Shown here: positions 16,989-63,985 of the stretch, one piece after another | Numbering within the stretch: position 1 is the first letter of the stretch | Layout: each line of letters begins with the position of its first letter | DNA from: a phage | Sequence record: OZ346222.1 | Reading direction: 5' to 3' (one strand) | Length of the DNA stretch: 64,000 nucleotides | Made by a program: the position numbers and the translations under genes | Notes under the pieces: generated by a model | The model's input: only the letters and a program-made list of their open reading frames with translations | Told to the model about the DNA's origin: nothing | Databases searched by the model: none

Positions 16989-17408
16989 ATGAACATTAAA
17001 TCTAATAATCCGGCATATAGCTTTGATAACGCTTTTTGTCACGGTCCGGCGGCGAAAGGATTCGAAATCGATGGTAAACTAATTATTGTCAATGTTGACG
17101 GGGAAGAGGTTGCAGTATATCCGGTGGCAGACGTAAAAAGCCGTTTACAATGCCGCATGGATGTTACCGCCTATCAGCTTGATCCGGTCCGCATAGTTGC
17201 CCTGGTCCTGGAAGAAGAAATTAAAGCCATGCACCATAGCAACAGATTTATTGGTGACGCGCAGGATAATATGAAAGTATGCCGCCATAAAGTTAATGAA
17301 GTGCTTAAAGAGTACGGCTATAAAGATCTTATGATCAAACGTGAGGAAAAATTCCGCTACCGTAACGACCTGGCAAATCGGATTTTTGAAATATACGAAT
17401 CATTATAA
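16989..17408 (+). CDS. hypothetical protein (139 aa)
   Basis: Track ORF; TAAGAGG RBS. Confidence 0.6.
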   Translation: MNIKSNNPAYSFDNAFCHGPAAKGFEIDGKLIIVNVDGEEVAVYPVADVKSRLQCRMDVTAYQLDPVRIVALVLEEEIKAMHHSNRFIGDAQDNMKVCRHKVNEVLKEYGYKDLMIKREEKFRYRNDLANRIFEIYESL

Positions 17409-17426
17409 TTTTTTAACTGAATTATC

Positions 17427-17452
17427 AAGGGGCTTAGGCCCCTTTCTTTTTG
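17427..17452 (+). terminator. intrinsic terminator closing the rightward early array
   Basis: AAGGGGC tta GGCCCCTT followed by TCTTTTT. Confidence 0.7.
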
Positions 17453-17889
17453 TCTGCTCTTCCCCCTACCATAAACGGCCCTACCTGGCAAGTGGAATAA
17501 TTGACGAGCCATCAATCCCACACACTGTACAAATATACATGTAAAATAACTATTGCATAACCTTTCATTGTGTGGTAGCGGTGCTATTTTTTACCTGTTT
17601 TCCTTCCAAAATTGCACGTAATGCAGCTATTGCACAAAATTTAACCTGATGCACATCTCCAATATCCTGTCAACAACTAAAAATCTTTATAAGTCATACA
17701 CTTACACAGCATCGAAAGCGTGTTCTACGCGAAAAATCGAGTATAACTATAGCCGCCAGATCTCAGAATTCACGTACGCACGCCATTCTATAGCCTGCAA
17801 AGTATTTATTCCAACCACAGAATAACGGAATAGTCAATACCTGAATAAAATAATTATTCGTTTAAACTGCATAACATAAATCAGCTCAG

Positions 17890-19410
17890 GTGTCAACATT
17901 TTTCGTAAACAGTCTGAAATTGTCACTGTGAGTTATCATAAACAGAGAAATCTTTAGTCGTATAATGTTTACTGTACGTTACTATACTGACTGGAATCAT
18001 TAGATGACTAATAGAAAGATAAGAAATAATTAACAATACAATTATTTTACCTGTAACAATAAGACAACTATGCAAACGAATGGCATGGCGCGACGGAGTC
18101 GCGACATAATATAAAAGCAGTAACCATCACCCCCGTGATGGTTTGTCTGCAATCTATTAATCAGATCATAGTTGCCTTGTATTCAGTTAATCATGACATA
18201 ATAAGCAAGGCAACTATAGATCTGCTAATAGTTGCCCTGCTTTTATATTATGTCATATATTATTAACTTGTTAATTGTTAACTTGCTAATTGTTTTCATG
18301 CAAACGAATGTCATGGCTTATCCTATCTGTGTAAACAGTTAAGGTGTAAACTATCCAGGCGTAAACAGTCTATGCGGGAACAATCTATACGTGAACAGTG
18401 AAACATGAAATAATAACAGTCGTTATTGTGTCGAAAGTGTATAAGGTGTCAGACAAGTTTTTCTCCTCTTTGTCAAGTGCTGCATGAAAAATTTACAAGC
18501 TTGTATGGTAGCATTTTTGCGGCCCTGTTTACATTCAGCGATGTATGTATAATCCTTGTTGTGTGGGCGTTTAGACGTCTAGACGGTCAGAAGTCTGCAG
18601 GTTAATACCTAATCTATCGGCTGCTAACTATATCCCACACAAATAGTAAGAAATATAATTGTTATGTGCGTAAACAGTAACTCATGTTATCAATCCCTGT
18701 ATGTATCGCCAGTGGTGCGCATAATGGGTATTATGTTAAATTGCCCGTAATGATAACTATTCTCACAATGATAGGTATTCTCATTCACTCCCACAAGATA
18801 GGTTGCAAATGTTGTGCCACTGTGTGAACGGCCTAACCTATTAATTTGCCTCACTGCCTCGATATTTGAGAATTGTTATAAGAATGAGAAGTATTCCCAT
18901 TTCGTCCGCCTGGCAGCACTCCAGTCGCTACCGCTCATGACAGGGCAGAACTAGACCCTCTTCAGATATTTCTGGCTGACTCTTCAGGTCTGTGTGGGAA
19001 AAGCCAACCTCTCCGGCGGCGGGGAGGGGGTCAATTAAAAAAAATTACGTGGTGCATGAAGCGCTCTTCAGGTAAGGCATGTGTTATGGGATGAAACCCT
19101 CTTCAGGCAATGATATTTGTGGGTGTGATATTTGCTGGAAAGCCAGATATGACGGGACTCCTGGCGGGGCAGGGGTAGTACAGACAGGGAAAATATGGGG
19201 GATGTAGTTGGGGAAATTGATCAGACAGGTAGAGTATGGAATATGTTACAAGTATGTTAAATAGGGAGGATGAATATCTGCAGGATTTGTGTGTAAAATC
19301 AAAGACTTAAGTGGTGTTGTGGTATTTTCTATAAATAATTCAAGTTTAATAGGTAATATTTGTCTCTATCCACTTTGTGTGGTAAACAGATTCAGATGAA
19401 ATTGGTTTAC
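17890..19410. repeat. iteron field: at least 8 copies of GTAAACAG(T) in both orientations
   Basis: Copies at about 17899, 17969(-), 18332, 18361, 18527(-), 18669, 19381 plus variants GTAAACTA, GTGAACAG; no ORF of 60 aa or more in 17545-19823. Confidence 0.6.
18150..18320. repeat. nested inverted and direct repeats
   Basis: ATAGTTGCCTTG / CAAGGCAACTAT perfect 12-bp inverted repeat, ATGACATAATA / TATTATGTCAT inverted repeat, TAATTGTT direct repeats, flanked by direct repeats ATGCAAACGAATG(G/T)CATGGC at about 18070 and 18298. Confidence 0.7.
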
Positions 19411-19873
19411 AAGTGTATACATAATATACAAATTAAAGATACAAGAAACCCCCCTCCCCCTTCGGCTACCATTCACCTTTTCCTCTGACTGGTACTTAAA
19501 CACTTATTCAGACTCTTCAGGTTATCACCCATATATCATATGGCAGTGACTGGTGTCCTCCGGCCCCTCTTTCGTCACCCGTCCGCTTCGCCATGCTAAT
19601 GCCATAGCCAATGGTTCGGTTGTTCACTCTGTTCACTCAGGTGTATCTCCATACCCCTTCAAACCGAAGAGAACAGAAAACCCGAATTACTCGGTAAAAG
19701 AAAAGAGAAGAACTTAATTTTATCAGGATAGGCAAGAATGTCAAGGCATGACTGCTCACTAAACAAGCAAACAGTCATGTGTGGAAGGTAAGTGATTGTG
19801 GTGGTGGGAAATTTAGTTGAAAGATGTGTTATAGGTGCGCTTCCAGCACTTTGGCCGGGCAGCTAATTGTGTG

Positions 19874-20089
19874 TCAGTCCAGCGGTTCATCCTCTACTTC
19901 ACTGAAATCAATGTTCATGGTCTCCTCCCAACCATCGATCTCAGCACAAGAGTGGAGTTCTTTAGGGTTTACTCCCAAAGCCTCAGCAACAGAGTCTATA
20001 TTTAACACCTCTGGCAGGTATGATTCATCGAATTCAAGGTAAATCAGGCCACGAGTGTTGTCAGCTCCACCAAATATCTCTATCTTCAT
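19874..20089 (-). CDS. hypothetical acidic protein (71 aa)
   Basis: Track ORF; last gene of leftward array. Confidence 0.5.
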   Translation of the reverse strand: MKIEIFGGADNTRGLIYLEFDESYLPEVLNIDSVAEALGVNPKELHSCAEIDGWEETMNIDFSEVEDEPLD

Positions 20090-20210
20090 GAAATCTCCTC
20101 TGGAAATGAGAGTGTGAACAGGGTTTTATACGTTCTAATGCACAGGAATTATACACGTTTGCCTCTTCAGGCCATGCTTTAGCATGAGGAACCTGTGTGG
20201 GCTCGGTGCT

Positions 20211-20423
20211 TCATAGTCTACCACCTCTGAACTCTTCGTGCTCAGGCATAATAGAGAACCAGATATCTACGATGTCCTCCCACGTCAGGTCATCAGCCTC
20301 AGGATCTGTCTGGGACGAAGATGAAGAGTCCTCAGAATCTAAGTTTTCCTCTTTAACTGGCTCATCCAAGGGACATATGGTCACTCCTTCGGATGTCTCT
20401 TCAGATGCATGTGTGTTGATCAT
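20211..20423 (-). CDS. hypothetical acidic protein (70 aa)
   Basis: Track ORF. Confidence 0.5.
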   Translation of the reverse strand: MINTHASEETSEGVTICPLDEPVKEENLDSEDSSSSSQTDPEADDLTWEDIVDIWFSIMPEHEEFRGGRL

Positions 20424-35717: not shown

Positions 35718-37841
35718 TCAGCAACCACAACTTCCGTAGTGCTTAACTCGCTCGATAACTTCCGCTTGCTTACCTTTATTGTAAGGACGGGAGTTAGGAC
35801 TGGAAAGGTATCCAGACACACGTCGAATTACACTGATCGTTCCCTCTTCATGGTTTCCACACTCTGGGCATACAAAGCCTTTAGCTGTTGCACTGAACTC
35901 ACCAGAGAAACCACACTTGAGACATTTATCCACAGGTTGGTTAATACCAAAATACATAATGTGTTTATACCCGAAGTCAACAAGAGCCTCTAAAGCATCC
36001 AGGTTGTTTTTCAGGTTAGGTGTTTCTACGTATCCGATGTTGCCACCAGAGGAGATCATAGCAAAACCTTCCTCATACTCCCACTTATCAAAAGGAGAGC
36101 TATTTATCCATACTGGCTGATGGAAACTGTTGGTGAGATATTCATGCTCGTGCTTCAACACTTCCGGATATTCACGATCCAGACAGGTTGCAGCTTTATA
36201 GCATAGACTCTCAGAAGGAGTGCCGTACAAGCTAAATGCTAGTCTACTTTCCTTCTTGTATCGCTCACAAGCATCTCTCATGTGCTGAAGGATTCCAAGA
36301 GCTAAAGCCTTGTCACCCTCTCTGCCCAAAATCTGACAGGTTTCATACACACCGATATACCCAATACTGATGGAAGCGTACCCGTCATAGAAGAGTTTAT
36401 CAATACTCTCTTCAGGATCCAGGCGAGCAAGAGCGCCTTCACACCACATGATGGGGTTCTGCCCTGCCTTTGTTCCTTTTAGACGATTAACCCTTACAAG
36501 GTGAGCCTCGTATGCAAGATCCAAGTATTCGTCAAGAACTGCAAAGAAATCAACACCTTCCGTCTTAGCTTTTGCCGCAATCATTGGCAGGTTAAGGCTA
36601 ACAACGCCTAAGTTAAATCTGCCAAGGTATTTCTCCTCGCCTGTTTCCAAGTCATTGTATTTGCTAAGAAAACTCCTGCAACCCATGCTAGTTACTTTGC
36701 CATCTGTCGAGCCTGTCACTTTTCTATTTAGTGGTACAGATACGAAGTCAGGATAGATACGTTCTGCACAGCATTCCAGAGCTAATCGTTTCAAATCATA
36801 GTTAGGATCCCCAGGGTTCATGTTGACACCCTCTTCCAGGAAGAACAGCACTTTAGGGAACACAGGTGTGATACGTTCTTCACCAAGACCCATTTTGTGG
36901 ACTTTCAGGTAGTTTTTGGTAATCATTCTACCAAAGACCGAGGTATCCAGTCCTAAACTCAATGTGATGAATGGAGTTTGCCCGTTGACAGAAGTTAACG
37001 TGTTGATTTGATAGAGCAAAGTCTGCATGCTGTCAAATACGTCTTTATCTGTCATTTGCATTGCAACAGTTTCAGCATCCGGCAACCAATGTTCCTGGCA
37101 AAATTTAAGGTTCTTCTCATAGGTTGCTTCAGCATACTGTGCCAGATAATGATCAATATGGCTCATAGTCTGACCACCATATTGAGCACTAGCTACCGCA
37201 CTAGAGATTTGGCTAAGGATTGTTGTTGCAACCCCTATTGACTTCGGCTTACTGACATGGGCGTTACCAATGTTGAATCCGTTTTCCAACATATCTGGAT
37301 AATTTACCAAACAACAGTTTGTTAACGGACTGATCAAGTAGTCAAGATCATGCACATGGATGAATCCTTTATTGTGCTCTTCGGAGACACGGTCTGGCAG
37401 GATCTGTGTTGATGCAAGGTGTTTGCTAAGAATACCTGCAAGCAGGTCGCGATGAGTGTGTACATGATTAGTAGGCTTATTTGCGTTTTCTTTTGTAAAT
37501 TCATCACAAGTTCGATCCAAGAAGCCACTAATATCTGCAAGCAGTTTTCCACCTGCCTCTCTGTTATTATCTCTTGTCTGTCTATACTGGATGTATTCTC
37601 TGGCTGCACATTTTAAACCCATATCCATAAGAGCATCTTCAACAAGGATATGGATATTTTTTACAGAGATCGTGCACTGGTCGGTTGGTAGATTGTTAGC
37701 AACAACTTCATTAACCGCGCAGGCGATCCGGTAAGCTTCTTCTTCAGTATGTCCAGACTCAAGTAAGGCGGACTCTGCCGCCTTGATCACCTTAATTCCG
37801 TTATAGAACTCTTCTCTACCGTCCCGTTTTACAACTTTCAC
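35718..37841 (-). CDS. nrdD: anaerobic ribonucleoside-triphosphate reductase (class III)
   Basis: 707-aa track ORF; C-terminal glycyl-radical-like RRVSGYL and zinc ribbon CLKCGF...CPECG. Confidence 0.9.
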   Translation of the reverse strand: MKVVKRDGREEFYNGIKVIKAAESALLESGHTEEEAYRIACAVNEVVANNLPTDQCTISVKNIHILVEDALMDMGLKCAAREYIQYRQTRDNNREAGGKLLADISGFLDRTCDEFTKENANKPTNHVHTHRDLLAGILSKHLASTQILPDRVSEEHNKGFIHVHDLDYLISPLTNCCLVNYPDMLENGFNIGNAHVSKPKSIGVATTILSQISSAVASAQYGGQTMSHIDHYLAQYAEATYEKNLKFCQEHWLPDAETVAMQMTDKDVFDSMQTLLYQINTLTSVNGQTPFITLSLGLDTSVFGRMITKNYLKVHKMGLGEERITPVFPKVLFFLEEGVNMNPGDPNYDLKRLALECCAERIYPDFVSVPLNRKVTGSTDGKVTSMGCRSFLSKYNDLETGEEKYLGRFNLGVVSLNLPMIAAKAKTEGVDFFAVLDEYLDLAYEAHLVRVNRLKGTKAGQNPIMWCEGALARLDPEESIDKLFYDGYASISIGYIGVYETCQILGREGDKALALGILQHMRDACERYKKESRLAFSLYGTPSESLCYKAATCLDREYPEVLKHEHEYLTNSFHQPVWINSSPFDKWEYEEGFAMISSGGNIGYVETPNLKNNLDALEALVDFGYKHIMYFGINQPVDKCLKCGFSGEFSATAKGFVCPECGNHEEGTISVIRRVSGYLSSPNSRPYNKGKQAEVIERVKHYGSCGC

Positions 37842-61211: not shown

Positions 61212-61308
61212 GCTAGGTAAGCCCTTTGGCAAGGGCGAGGATTTTTAATCCTGAAAATAGACGAGGTAGTCGTTGAATACATAGGTGGTTCGATTCCATC
61301 ACCTAGCA
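61212..61308 (+). tRNA. atypical tRNA-like gene (possible anticodon TTT) with about 30-nt extra arm
   Basis: Acceptor GCTAGGT/ACCTAGC, D-arm GCCC/GGGC, 4-bp anticodon stem with loop TTTTTAA, T-arm GGTGG TTCGATT CCATC; no CCA; extra region too long for a canonical tRNA. Confidence 0.35.
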
Positions 61309-61315
61309 CCTTTTT

Positions 61316-62375: not shown

Positions 62376-62659
62376 GAGTTGCTACACTGTTTATTGTGTG
62401 CTTGTTATTATGTGGGTGTGCAACCAGCGTTGAGAGAGAATACAAGATTGACCCTCCTGATGTAGGAAGGTTGATTGTTAAACCCCCGGAAGGTGCCATG
62501 AAACCACCTGCTAAAGCTATGCCTTTGAAGAAAGGTGCGCCAGATGCAGTGAATTCTGGCATTATGAGGGATAATAATCTGTCTTGTAGCAATGATAGAG
62601 CTAAATTGATCATTTTGCAAGACTATATTAGAACACTTTTTCCAAAGGAGAGAGGTTAA
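62372..62659 (+). CDS. o-spanin (Rz1-like) outer-membrane lipoprotein
   Basis: Track ORF; signal peptide with Cys cluster LLLCGCAT (non-canonical lipobox) and proline-rich mature region PPDVGRLIVKPPEGAMKPPAKAMP. Confidence 0.5.
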   Translation: MRVATLFIVCLLLCGCATSVEREYKIDPPDVGRLIVKPPEGAMKPPAKAMPLKKGAPDAVNSGIMRDNNLSCSNDRAKLIILQDYIRTLFPKERG

Positions 62660-63087
62660 TGTCTAAGATTTACGGACCGTGTTCTGAAAAGCAGAAGATG
62701 ATCCTAGAAAACGATGCAGATATTTTGGTAATCGGCGGTGCCGCAGGGTCTGGCAAGTCGTTCCTCTTGCAATTGATGCCACTTAAAATTATTGATGACC
62801 CCCACAGCTCTGTGGTTATGTTCCGAAGAACAACCCCACAGTTGGAAGGTGAGGGTGGATTATGGCCTAAAGCAGTAGCTATTTATAGTGATCTGCCTGA
62901 AAACATTAAGCCAAAGTTTAGAGAGAAGGATCATAAGTTCATTTTTCCACGGTTTGATCCGAACACTGGCAAGTGGGATAGAAGCAAAAAGGGAGCTGTT
63001 GTAAAATACTGCCACATGGAGTATGTACAAGATAAGCTTAACCATCAGGGGCTTGAGTACACCATGGTTTGCTTCGATGAGGGTTAA
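62659..63087 (+). CDS. terminase large subunit, 5' exon (ATPase domain through Walker B)
   Basis: Track ORF; Walker A ILVIGGAAGSGKSFL and Walker B TMVCFDE, frame closes immediately after Walker B where intron sequence begins. Confidence 0.65.
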   Translation: MSKIYGPCSEKQKMILENDADILVIGGAAGSGKSFLLQLMPLKIIDDPHSSVVMFRRTTPQLEGEGGLWPKAVAIYSDLPENIKPKFREKDHKFIFPRFDPNTGKWDRSKKGAVVKYCHMEYVQDKLNHQGLEYTMVCFDEG

Positions 63088-63985
63088 TTTGTAGCTCTCG
63101 TAAAACCTCCCTAATTGCGGGGAAATCTTTATTATTGACACCACCAACCTGTCATGGTAACATGACAGAGGCTTCGAAGAGAGATCGAAGGTATGGTAAC
63201 AGTGTGTTAATTTAGATAATCCGCAGCGAAGCATCCGAGAGGATGAACGTTCAACGACTAGTCGAAAGACGTAGAATCAAGCGATTCGAAACGGGAGGGT
63301 GAATGTGTAATACTAAGAAATGTATGGATTGCCAAAGAGTTCTACCTATTGATGATTTCTTTTTATCATCTAAGAGCAAGGATGGATACTCAGGTACATG
63401 CAAGGAATGCTATATGTACTACAGGAAGGGTGGATCTCGTAAAAACAAAAATATGGTTAAGAGAGATGATGCAGCATTGTTTATTCAAGACTTGCTGAAG
63501 AAAGGTGAACTTTTTGAATGCAAATCTTGTCATGAAAGTATGCTCGCTGATAGTTTTTACACAAAACGTGACTATGGTAAAGTATATCTGGTTACGAACA
63601 GGTGTAAGATGTGTGAAAAGTTTTATCAGATTGAGAAGAAATTTCACATAACAAAAGATGAATACTATCGTCTACTCTCAGATCAAGATCATAAGTGTGC
63701 CATTTGTAGAATATCCCTTGATGAGTATAGGACGCAAGGGTATAGAGATTTCTTTTGTGTTGATCATGACCATAAAACTGGTGCTGTAAGAGGGTTGCTT
63801 TGTGATAAATGCAACAGAGCTTTAGGTTTCTTCCAAGAGGATGAGGAAACTATTCTTAGAGCGGCAGAGTATTTACACATTCATAAGATATAGTCTGGTC
63901 TGCATGGAGACATGCAGCTGCCTGAAAATGGCGGGGCAAGACTAGCGACCTTGCCCGAACATAAACGACACAATTCGAATGGGAG
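63088..63985 (+). mobile_element. group I self-splicing intron with internal homing endonuclease ORF (boundaries approximate, 3' end not resolved)
   Basis: Core elements P AATTGCGGGGAAA (about 63113), Q AATCCGCAGC (about 63218), R GTTCAACGACTAGTC (about 63249), S-like AAGACTAGCGACC (about 63938). Confidence 0.6.
63303..63893 (+). CDS. HNH / endonuclease VII-type homing endonuclease (intron-encoded)
   Basis: Track ORF; GGAGGG RBS; CVDHDHKTGAVRGLLCDKCNRALGFF core motif plus N-terminal Cys-rich zinc-binding segments. Confidence 0.75.
   Translation: MCNTKKCMDCQRVLPIDDFFLSSKSKDGYSGTCKECYMYYRKGGSRKNKNMVKRDDAALFIQDLLKKGELFECKSCHESMLADSFYTKRDYGKVYLVTNRCKMCEKFYQIEKKFHITKDEYYRLLSDQDHKCAICRISLDEYRTQGYRDFFCVDHDHKTGAVRGLLCDKCNRALGFFQEDEETILRAAEYLHIHKI

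Follow-up and report, generated by a model that had tools for sequence, protein, structure and literature searches.

The DNA analysed here (the window) is a 64,000-nucleotide stretch of a phage genome, sequence record OZ346222.1, and our subject is a set of short CTCTTCAGG repeats that it contains, together with a G-tract and a C-tract that are complementary to each other. Between 17800 and 20200, the window is 93-96% identical, over the full length of that interval, to about 120 Vequintavirus (rV5-like myovirus) genomes, and on this similarity we assign it to Vequintavirus, the rV5-like phages of E. coli. The plus-strand genes stop at 17408, and the minus-strand genes start at 20089 and end at 19874. 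The repeats and tracts sit in the gap of about 2.5 kb between these converging gene blocks. Curated records have no coding sequence annotated between the homologues of window positions 17408 and 19874. The rV5 genome paper labels the gap 'non-coding', assumes circular permutation, and proposes no function for it (PMC3606486). An earlier note on this DNA had described the region as free of open reading frames, and these records bear that out.

The physical ends of two related genomes map to this gap. For phage Gotham, a 459-bp terminal repeat was deduced on the grounds that coverage was doubled and packaging starts were identical (PMC7471380), and the annotated repeat maps exactly onto 18452-18910 of the window. 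For phage HdK5, another laboratory reported a terminal redundancy of 458 bp (PMC6563267). We found that the HdK5 record carries an exact 459-nt repeat at both ends, and that its first base corresponds to window position 18910 and its last to 18452. The records of Pr121LW and ECP2303 likewise open or close at 18452. Because the Gotham and HdK5 end determinations map there, the gap is the junction of the physical genome ends. We conclude that the region free of open reading frames is the terminal-repeat, or concatemer-junction, region of the Vequintavirus genome, with the direct terminal repeat (DTR) at its centre. The earlier note had not recognised this context.

A short repeat enriched and conserved in the gap

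Five exact non-coding copies of CTCTTCAGG and one variant, all on a single strand, lie between 18958 and 20171 (copies 1 to 6, Table 1). Five copies had been claimed before, and we found the sequences within 4 nt of the positions given for them. As a count, four exact copies and one variant stood, and a sixth non-coding copy, at 20163, had been overlooked. Comparison with shuffled sequence confirmed the enrichment: the 64-kb window holds eight exact copies, all on the plus strand, against 0.60 expected, and none of 100 shuffles reached eight. The matches at 36408, 43041 and 43908 have nothing to do with the array: they are Pro-Glu-Glu codons, in frame, in genes of the minus strand. In the complete rV5 genome, five of the nine copies of CTCTTCAGG fall within the homologous 1.2-kb non-coding stretch. 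We also scanned IMG/VR for pairs of CTCTTCAGG spaced 10-40 nt apart; the roughly 120 contigs recovered were unrelated, with spacings that were mostly multiples of 3 and point to coding Pro-Glu-Glu, and the scan was set aside as uninformative.

To follow the repeats through the genus, we aligned 20 distinct Vequintavirus genomes. These relatives were taken singly from GenBank records; an IMG/VR search with the 71-amino-acid protein encoded beside copy 6 gave three loci only. Copies 2 to 6 retain CTCTTCAGG in 18 to 20 of the 20 genomes. Copy 1 is degenerate: its usual form is CTGTTCAGATATT, CTCTTCAG stands in its place in two of the 20 related genomes, and TTCAGATATT alone is conserved across all 20. 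In copies 2 to 4, only 3 of the 27 core columns vary, all as singletons, compared with 41% of the surrounding non-coding columns (permutation P about 0.01-0.03). The base directly 3' of the core varies in 5 to 7 of 20 genomes (the next base in 5 of 20 for copy 2, and the two following bases in 7 of 20 for copy 4), which argues that the constraint acts on the 9-mer itself. The G-tract, which lies between copies 2 and 3, carries insertions of 12-70 nt in relatives. Conservation in related genomes had been named by the earlier note as a check on the repeats, and it held, with the core kept while adjoining bases vary. Taken together, we conclude that the repeat observation is real, being both non-random and conserved.

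A candidate packaging signal beside the terminal repeat

Copies 1 to 4 span 48-197 bp from the right cut, in unique DNA, and none of the copies lies inside the DTR. Three phages of other genera could be compared at this position: Escherichia phage Av-05 (Avunavirus), its relative TH18, and Erwinia phage Hena1 (Henunavirus). The scan that led to them started from a dif site in the DTR, described below. They share the layout of the window, with converging gene blocks and a non-coding gap. BLAST of the gap from these genera against the window found no similarity except for 30-33 nt at dif. The right DTR boundary (the slash marks the cut) reads CGTCCGCC/TGGCAG in the window, GTCCGTC/TAACAG in Hena1 and CGTCCGTC/TAACCC in Av-05, where it is placed by similarity. 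GTCCGYC/T is conserved at the right boundary in three genera, with arrays adjoining it. The start of the DTR is also similar and T-rich (GACAAGTTTTTCTCCTCTTTGTCAAG in the window, AACACTTTTCTATCTTCCTGTCAAG in Hena1). These shared boundary sequences argue for a homologous cutting system.

The arrays beside the boundary are alike in layout and in core sequence. In Av-05, CCCTTCAGAGAT occurs at +6, +21 and +49 from the boundary, and TH18 retains CTTCAGR in all three copies, with changed flanks. In Hena1, where the DTR is annotated at 1-519, YTCAGGG occurs three times, as CGTTCAGGGATAT, CACTCAGGGATAT and AATTCAGGGG, at +63, +93 and +183. In the window, in Avunavirus and in Henunavirus, there are three or four repeats each, in the same orientation and in the same place, and the core common to the genera is YTCAGRG (Y = C or T, R = A or G). 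A longer form, TTCAG..GATATTTCTGG, ties copy 1 of the window to the Av-05 and Hena1 units, and copy 1 resembles CCTTCAGAGATTTATCTGG of Av-05 and CACTCAGGGATATTTTCTCGG of Hena1. Beyond the array, each of the three genera has a G-rich tract, and in Vequintavirinae the array lies just inside the right boundary of a DTR of about 460-520 bp. We read the CTCTTCAGG copies as this genus's version of the YTCAGRG array beside the right boundary of the DTR. Separately, we noticed GATATTTGTG(T)GGG about +200 from the boundary, a sequence shared with Av-05 and TH18.

The cosB or pac repeats of lambda, P1 and SPP1 serve to position terminase. We propose that the CTCTTCAGG array may likewise be a recognition array for the machinery that cuts the termini and packages the DNA, a tentative reading to which we give a little less than an even chance. 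We infer a plausible packaging role from evidence that is positional and evolutionary throughout. The earlier note had suggested that the repeats and tracts may be protein binding sites or structure-forming elements; for the repeats, protein binding appears to be the best-supported reading, given their single orientation, their bounded 9-mer core, their place beside the genome end and their equivalents elsewhere. In the proposed mechanism, the replicated genome would consist of concatemers with one copy of the DTR per junction. A terminus-generating or packaging protein, for which a small-terminase-like recognition subunit is the likeliest candidate, would bind the same-orientation repeats and position the nuclease for a cut at the adjacent boundary GTCCGYC/T. 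For copies 5 and 6, which lie further out (19513 and 20163), the model would have the same protein bind at additional sites of low density. The T7-type model has the same form, with one repeat per concatemer junction, a site-specific terminase cut, and resynthesis of the second repeat (PMC10438801).

Arrays of short repeats on the flanks of phage terminal repeats are a known architecture, of which the present array is a new example. T7 (NC_001604) has about 12 CCTAAAG-type repeats at 175-340, with a 13-bp period, the first one lying at +15 from the 160-bp terminal repeat, and it has fewer such repeats on the right flank. Dunn and Studier are said to have described these in 1983 as the short-repeat arrays SRL and SRR beside the 160-bp terminal repeat. 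As in T7, the repeats of the window are short, share one orientation, and stand in unique DNA beside the terminal repeat of a genome with fixed ends (from +48 to +197 in the window, +15 in T7 and +6 in Av-05). Unlike T7, which has about 12 copies at a regular 13 bp and more inside the repeat, the window has four to six copies, irregularly placed, with none inside the DTR; the motifs are unrelated, as are the phages (T7 is a podovirus and the window comes from a large myovirus). The array also recalls the R sites of lambda cosB, the hexamers of P1 pac and the pacL/pacR boxes of SPP1, in that clustered short motifs would stand beside a sequence-specific cut and would diverge between related phages along with their packaging proteins. 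Those sites differ from the window array in having demonstrated binding of small terminase or IHF and a genetic requirement, and they serve a different type of packaging (cos or headful, as opposed to a short exact DTR).

Several observations weigh against a packaging role. The spacings between copies are irregular (22, 84 and 35 bp), and insertions in relatives change the spacing between copies 2 and 3. Copies 5 and 6 are 600 and 1250 bp away from the cut, and copy 6 abuts a likely promoter, which would fit a regulator equally well. The left flank of the DTR has different motifs, and no single motif marks both cuts. Phage Schickermooser (Phapecoctavirus), in which the neighbouring 139-amino-acid gene is 89% identical, has a DTR of 329 bp that starts in a similar way (AGCAAGTTCTCTT), but the repeat after its DTR is TTGCCAT, present four times, with no TTCAG motif there. 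PHROGs searches found no small terminase beside the large terminase gene (TerL): the upstream open reading frames are Rz-like spanins, with zero TerS matches. We know of no protein that binds the CTCTTCAGG motif. To our knowledge, the function of SRL and SRR in T7 has never been firmly established, which makes the analogy with T7 architectural and not mechanistic. Finally, a 2026 paper, using PhageTerm on a phage cocktail, inferred that a Vequintavirus packages by the headful mechanism (PMC13211470); we give this less weight than the two concordant end determinations for Gotham and HdK5.

Our literature searches found no description of these repeats in Vequintavirinae. rV5-like phages are widely isolated and are candidates for therapy and biocontrol, and the 2.5-kb gap has gone unexplained since the rV5 genome paper. 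The analysis locates the physical genome ends inside this 'non-coding' gap, and the array beside the cut in three genera is a concrete candidate packaging signal. Such a signal would be useful for choosing where to open and how to annotate these genomes, for phage engineering, and for packageable vectors.

Other possible roles for the repeats and tracts

The repeats could instead be operators, with no role in packaging, at which a phage or host transcription regulator controls leftward early promoters near the genome end. Read on the minus strand, copy 6 is followed by a 9-nt gap ending in TG and then by TATAAT, upstream of the gene for the 71-amino-acid protein, which would put the repeat between about -30 and -22 relative to a likely promoter. 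About 190 nt separate the strong promoter at 19744-19717 from copy 5, which is downstream of it, and a conserved 9-mer with variable flanks would suit any sequence-specific binding protein. This promoter, copy 5 and the C-tract are all contained in an ultra-conserved non-coding block (19447-19780), which is 96.7-100% identical across 119 records, more conserved than the adjacent gene, and without homology in the other genera. Around the repeats as a whole, we found no consistent promoter geometry except at copy 6: at copies 1 to 5, neither strand has a -10 or -35 element at a consistent position, and copies 1 to 4 are not close to gene starts. What stays constant across genera is how the arrays are placed with respect to the DTR boundary, and not with respect to promoters or genes. 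We consider the operator explanation improbable.

The dif site named above, a dif-like XerC/XerD site, lies within the DTR and 217 bp away from copy 1. Compared with the reference E. coli dif sequence (PMC2731167), both 11-bp Xer arms are exact (11/11), the 6-bp spacing is kept, and the two mismatches are both central; zero such sites are expected by chance. The arms are invariant in all 20 Vequintavirus genomes, with the centre TGGGTA in 18 and TAGGTA in two. The site is present in Av-05 (locus L197, 3447-3474) and TH18 (L198, 2432-2459), where the centre is CGTGTA, and in Hena1 (L196, 289-316), where the centre is GGTGTA and the site is within the annotated DTR. It is the only sequence of the gap that is conserved across the three genera, and it looks selected. 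Finding dif in the DTR of virulent myoviruses was unexpected, and it is the most surprising element of the region; literature searches found no report of dif in Vequintavirinae. A second XerD-arm-like 11-mer, at 19252, was within chance. As a separate observation, four IMG/VR loci on viral contigs of 31-262 kb (L148, L156, L193 and L160) carry dif sites with exact arms and non-host centres. Beside these sites are DnaA-box-like repeats (TGTGGATAA) and a second dif-like half-site in inverted orientation, and the loci had no match among GenBank phages.

The tracts raise a related question, in that both match GGGNAGGG, the KOPS motif, which is the loading site of FtsK (PMC3130261). Matches lie at 19021 (plus strand), 19167 (plus strand) and 19459 (minus strand). 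Three matches in 571 bp compare with 0.16 expected, and none of 2000 local shuffles reached three. At least one plus-strand match and the minus-strand match are present in all 20 Vequintavirus genomes, and Av-05 has three matches near its dif. The repeats and tracts could thus be imagined as a host Xer/FtsK module around the dif of the DTR, with the tracts serving as KOPS and the repeats as accessory sites, that circularises incoming DNA or resolves multimers. The exact arms of the nearby dif and their conservation in three genera favour such a module, as does the excess of KOPS matches. Against it, two of the three motifs in the window and all three in Av-05 point away from dif, opposite to the chromosomal arrangement; there are none in the 4 kb around the Hena1 DTR; and in rV5 KOPS has no genome-wide polarity. 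CTCTTCAGG resembles no Xer accessory-factor site known to us. Flanking open reading frames are called 'FtsK' in some records, but the GenBank label 'DNA translocase FtsK' is unsupported: Pfam and PHROGs searches with the small flanking open reading frames found no DNA-binding, FtsK or TerS domains. As an account of the repeats, a host Xer/FtsK module seems to us quite unlikely.

A KOPS function for the tracts themselves is a low-probability but attractive idea. It is unlikely, in our estimate, that the tracts are functional KOPS and would form, with the dif of the DTR and the repeat array, a module by which virulent Vequintavirinae use host FtsK-XerCD. If this were true, the incoming linear genome would be circularised by recombination between the two terminal copies of dif, replicative multimers would be resolved or processed before packaging, and the non-host centre would prevent recombination with the chromosome. 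BLAST of 18911-19800 against 5,426 complete E. coli genomes gave no match, and we take the region to be neither host-derived nor present in integrated copies for that reason. The absence of a copy in these E. coli genomes, together with the non-host centre, argues against integration and for recombination between phage copies, in cyclisation or multimer resolution.

The comparison with known systems runs both ways. Both arms of the dif in the DTR are identical to those of E. coli dif and both tracts match GGGNAGGG, as in Xer systems, whereas the centre of the phage site is TGGGTA in place of TGTATA in the host, and the phage motifs, unlike chromosomal KOPS, mostly point away from dif. As with Cre-loxP of P1, a recombination site in the terminal redundancy could circularise incoming linear DNA. 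CTXphi is a further phage that uses Xer. Filamentous phages such as UPphi do so (PMC7307601), and the analogy of P1 and Xer has been discussed for a virulent phage with a DTR (PMC3556154). The Xer-using phages that our literature searches turned up are small filamentous, microvirus or non-tailed temperate elements, which integrate at host dif; in contrast, the window comes from a virulent myovirus of 137 kb. The phage dif, if functional, would extend the exploitation of Xer beyond small integrating elements.

Might the motif act in RNA? CCUGAAGAG would be present in the minus-strand transcript from the promoter at 19744 and in the 5' leader of the gene for the 71-amino-acid protein, as a site for an RNA-binding protein or a nuclease. 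All six copies are so oriented that CCUGAAGAG would appear in RNA from the minus strand, on which the neighbouring genes and the strong promoter also lie. In addition, minus-strand RNA of 19110-19260 would be C-rich and G-poor (plus-strand GC skew +0.48). We take this stretch to look like a Rho loading region. An Rfam search of 17400-20300, at the gathering threshold and at E <= 10, returned nothing relevant. RNA folds of the ultra-conserved block had z-scores of -0.8 and -0.4 on the two strands, with no signal of stability or structured RNA on either, and the block has too little variation for covariation tests. The copies share no common local hairpin around them, and copies 1 and 2 lie past a terminator-like hairpin on the minus strand. 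The Av-05 array begins 6 nt away from where the DNA is cut, and this suggests a role at the level of DNA. We give an RNA role for the motif a low probability. We also observed that the plus strand of 19110-19260 is G-rich and C-poor with several G-runs and may be quadruplex-prone.

As iterons of a replication origin, the repeats would be direct repeats in a non-coding and partly AT-rich region. The primary origin of T7 consists of a promoter and AT-rich DNA, and the region has several direct-repeat families, an AT-rich stretch at 19300-19446 and a strong promoter; the phage also encodes, by annotation, a T7-like DNA polymerase and a primase-helicase. Unlike iterons, however, the copies are neither regularly spaced nor tandem, they have no initiator gene next to them (the flanking open reading frames are without initiator-like domains), and their position is tied to the DNA end. 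The 15-bp GTRAACAGT repeats across the DTR make better iteron candidates, and the GC skew of rV5 singled out no origin here beyond the switch in transcription direction (PMC3606486). We regard an origin as very improbable.

The G-tract and C-tract had been described in the earlier note as a long-range inverted pair that might form structure. They are exact reverse complements at 10 of 10 bases, with the arms 419 nt apart, but such a pair does not exceed chance: dinucleotide shuffles give an exact inverted repeat of at least 10 nt in 17% of cases for 18950-19520 and in 95% for the whole non-coding region. The G-tract is altered, or interrupted by the 12-70-nt insertions, in about 6 of 20 genomes, and the C-tract, otherwise invariant, changes in run length only, with no compensation. 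In Av-05 the tracts lie on opposite sides of the DTR, and in the window the minimum-free-energy fold, which is not significant, gives the C-tract's complement another partner. A DNA or RNA stem spanning 430 nt, hardly credible on this evidence, is rejected because the pairing is within chance and the G-tract varies with no compensating change in its partner.

Coordinates and further features of the region

Table 1. Features of the terminal-repeat region, in window coordinates; a slash marks a cut, and a dot stands where no strand applies.
Feature	Position	Strand	Remarks
Left-flank arrays	18330..18451	+	15-bp GTRAACAGT iterons, then GTGTC(A) repeats up to the cut GGTGTCA/GACAAG
Direct terminal repeat (DTR), 459 bp	18452..18910	.	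GACAAGTTTTTCTCC ... CATTTCGTCCGCC/TGGCAG; mapped from Gotham and HdK5
dif-like XerC/XerD site GGTGCGCATAATGGGTATTATGTTAAAT	18714..18741	+	GGTGCGCATAA-TGGGTA-TTATGTTAAAT; inside DTR; 26/28 identical to E. coli dif
Unit of about 33 nt starting GGCAGCACTCC	18911..18947	+	directly after right edge of DTR; alignment of relatives
Copy 1, degenerate long form CTCTTCAGATATTTCTGG	18958..18975	+	contains CTCTTCAGA at 18958; +48 from right edge of DTR
Copy 2, CTCTTCAGG	18980..18988	+	exact match; kept in 19/20 genomes
G-tract GGGGAGGGGG (19021-19030)	19008..19030	+	possible local hairpin CCTCTCC-N8-GGAGGGG; KOPS match; hotspot of variation and insertion
Copy 3, CTCTTCAGG	19064..19072	+	exact match; kept in 19/20 genomes
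Copy 4, CTCTTCAGG	19099..19107	+	35 bp past copy 3; CTCTTCAG kept in 20/20 genomes
Second KOPS-consensus match GGGCAGGG	19167..19174	+	motif match
Ultra-conserved non-coding block, 334 bp	19447..19780	.	99-100% identical, 20 genomes
C-tract CCCCCTCCCC	19450..19459	-	GGGGAGGGGG on minus strand; KOPS match; left edge of ultra-conserved block
Copy 5, CTCTTCAGG (19513-19521)	19503..19521	+	preceded by tandem degenerate CTTATTCAGA; in ultra-conserved block; 20/20 genomes
Near-consensus sigma-70 promoter TTGACA-16-TG-n-TAAAAT	19717..19744	-	11/12 matches plus TG extension; aimed at DTR
Copy 6, CTCTTCAGG	20163..20171	+	gap between two minus-strand genes; kept in 18-19/20 genomes

The DTR is flanked by repeats on both sides. 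On the left, the GTRAACAGT iterons vary from 2 to 11 copies among relatives, and the GTGTC(A) repeats that follow them keep a 10-11-bp phase and terminate exactly at the cut. GTGTC equals what we take to be the recognition sequence of T7-type primases, and the phage has a T7 gp4-like primase-helicase. On the right, between the DTR edge and copy 1, relatives carry GGCAGCACTCC units of about 33 nt as unit A, unit B or both.

Several other features were noticed in and around the DTR. Just past dif, at 18749-18783 and 18883-18899, the DTR holds three palindromic boxes of the form TGATAA-N3-TTCTCA, which are Fur-box-like and have conserved half-sites and variable centres; a similar Fur-like box is present in the DTR of Schickermooser, and TGAGAAGCGTTCTCA in that of Hena1. 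Left of the DTR is a perfect 18-nt inverted repeat, GACATAATATAAAAGCAG at 18103-18120 and CTGCTTTTATATTATGTC at 18237-18254. The arms, 116 nt apart, bracket smaller ATAGTTGCC dyads, and the repeat far exceeds chance expectation (0 of 300 shuffles). The 139-amino-acid open reading frame at 16989-17408 (plus strand), whose function is not known, is 85-90% identical in Phapecoctavirus, which belongs to another subfamily, and in that genus too it is 1.2-1.6 kb away from the record ends.

Elsewhere in the window, ARAGORN identified a 99-nt tRNA-like gene with a four-base anticodon (atcc) at 61212-61310 (plus strand), inside a tRNA cluster. It matches the Rfam tRNA family at 35.5 bits and is absent from the rV5 annotation. 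The large terminase gene is split: a first exon-like open reading frame at 62659-63084 precedes an endonuclease VII/HNH-type open reading frame at 63303-63890 (plus strand), which is consistent with the intron-containing TerL described for rV5. Lastly, GenBank has about 19 records under the name 'Campylobacter phage' (UNVERIFIED, MG0656xx) that are Vequintavirus genomes with 85-95% identity to this E. coli phage; these are probably mislabelled or contaminant isolates.

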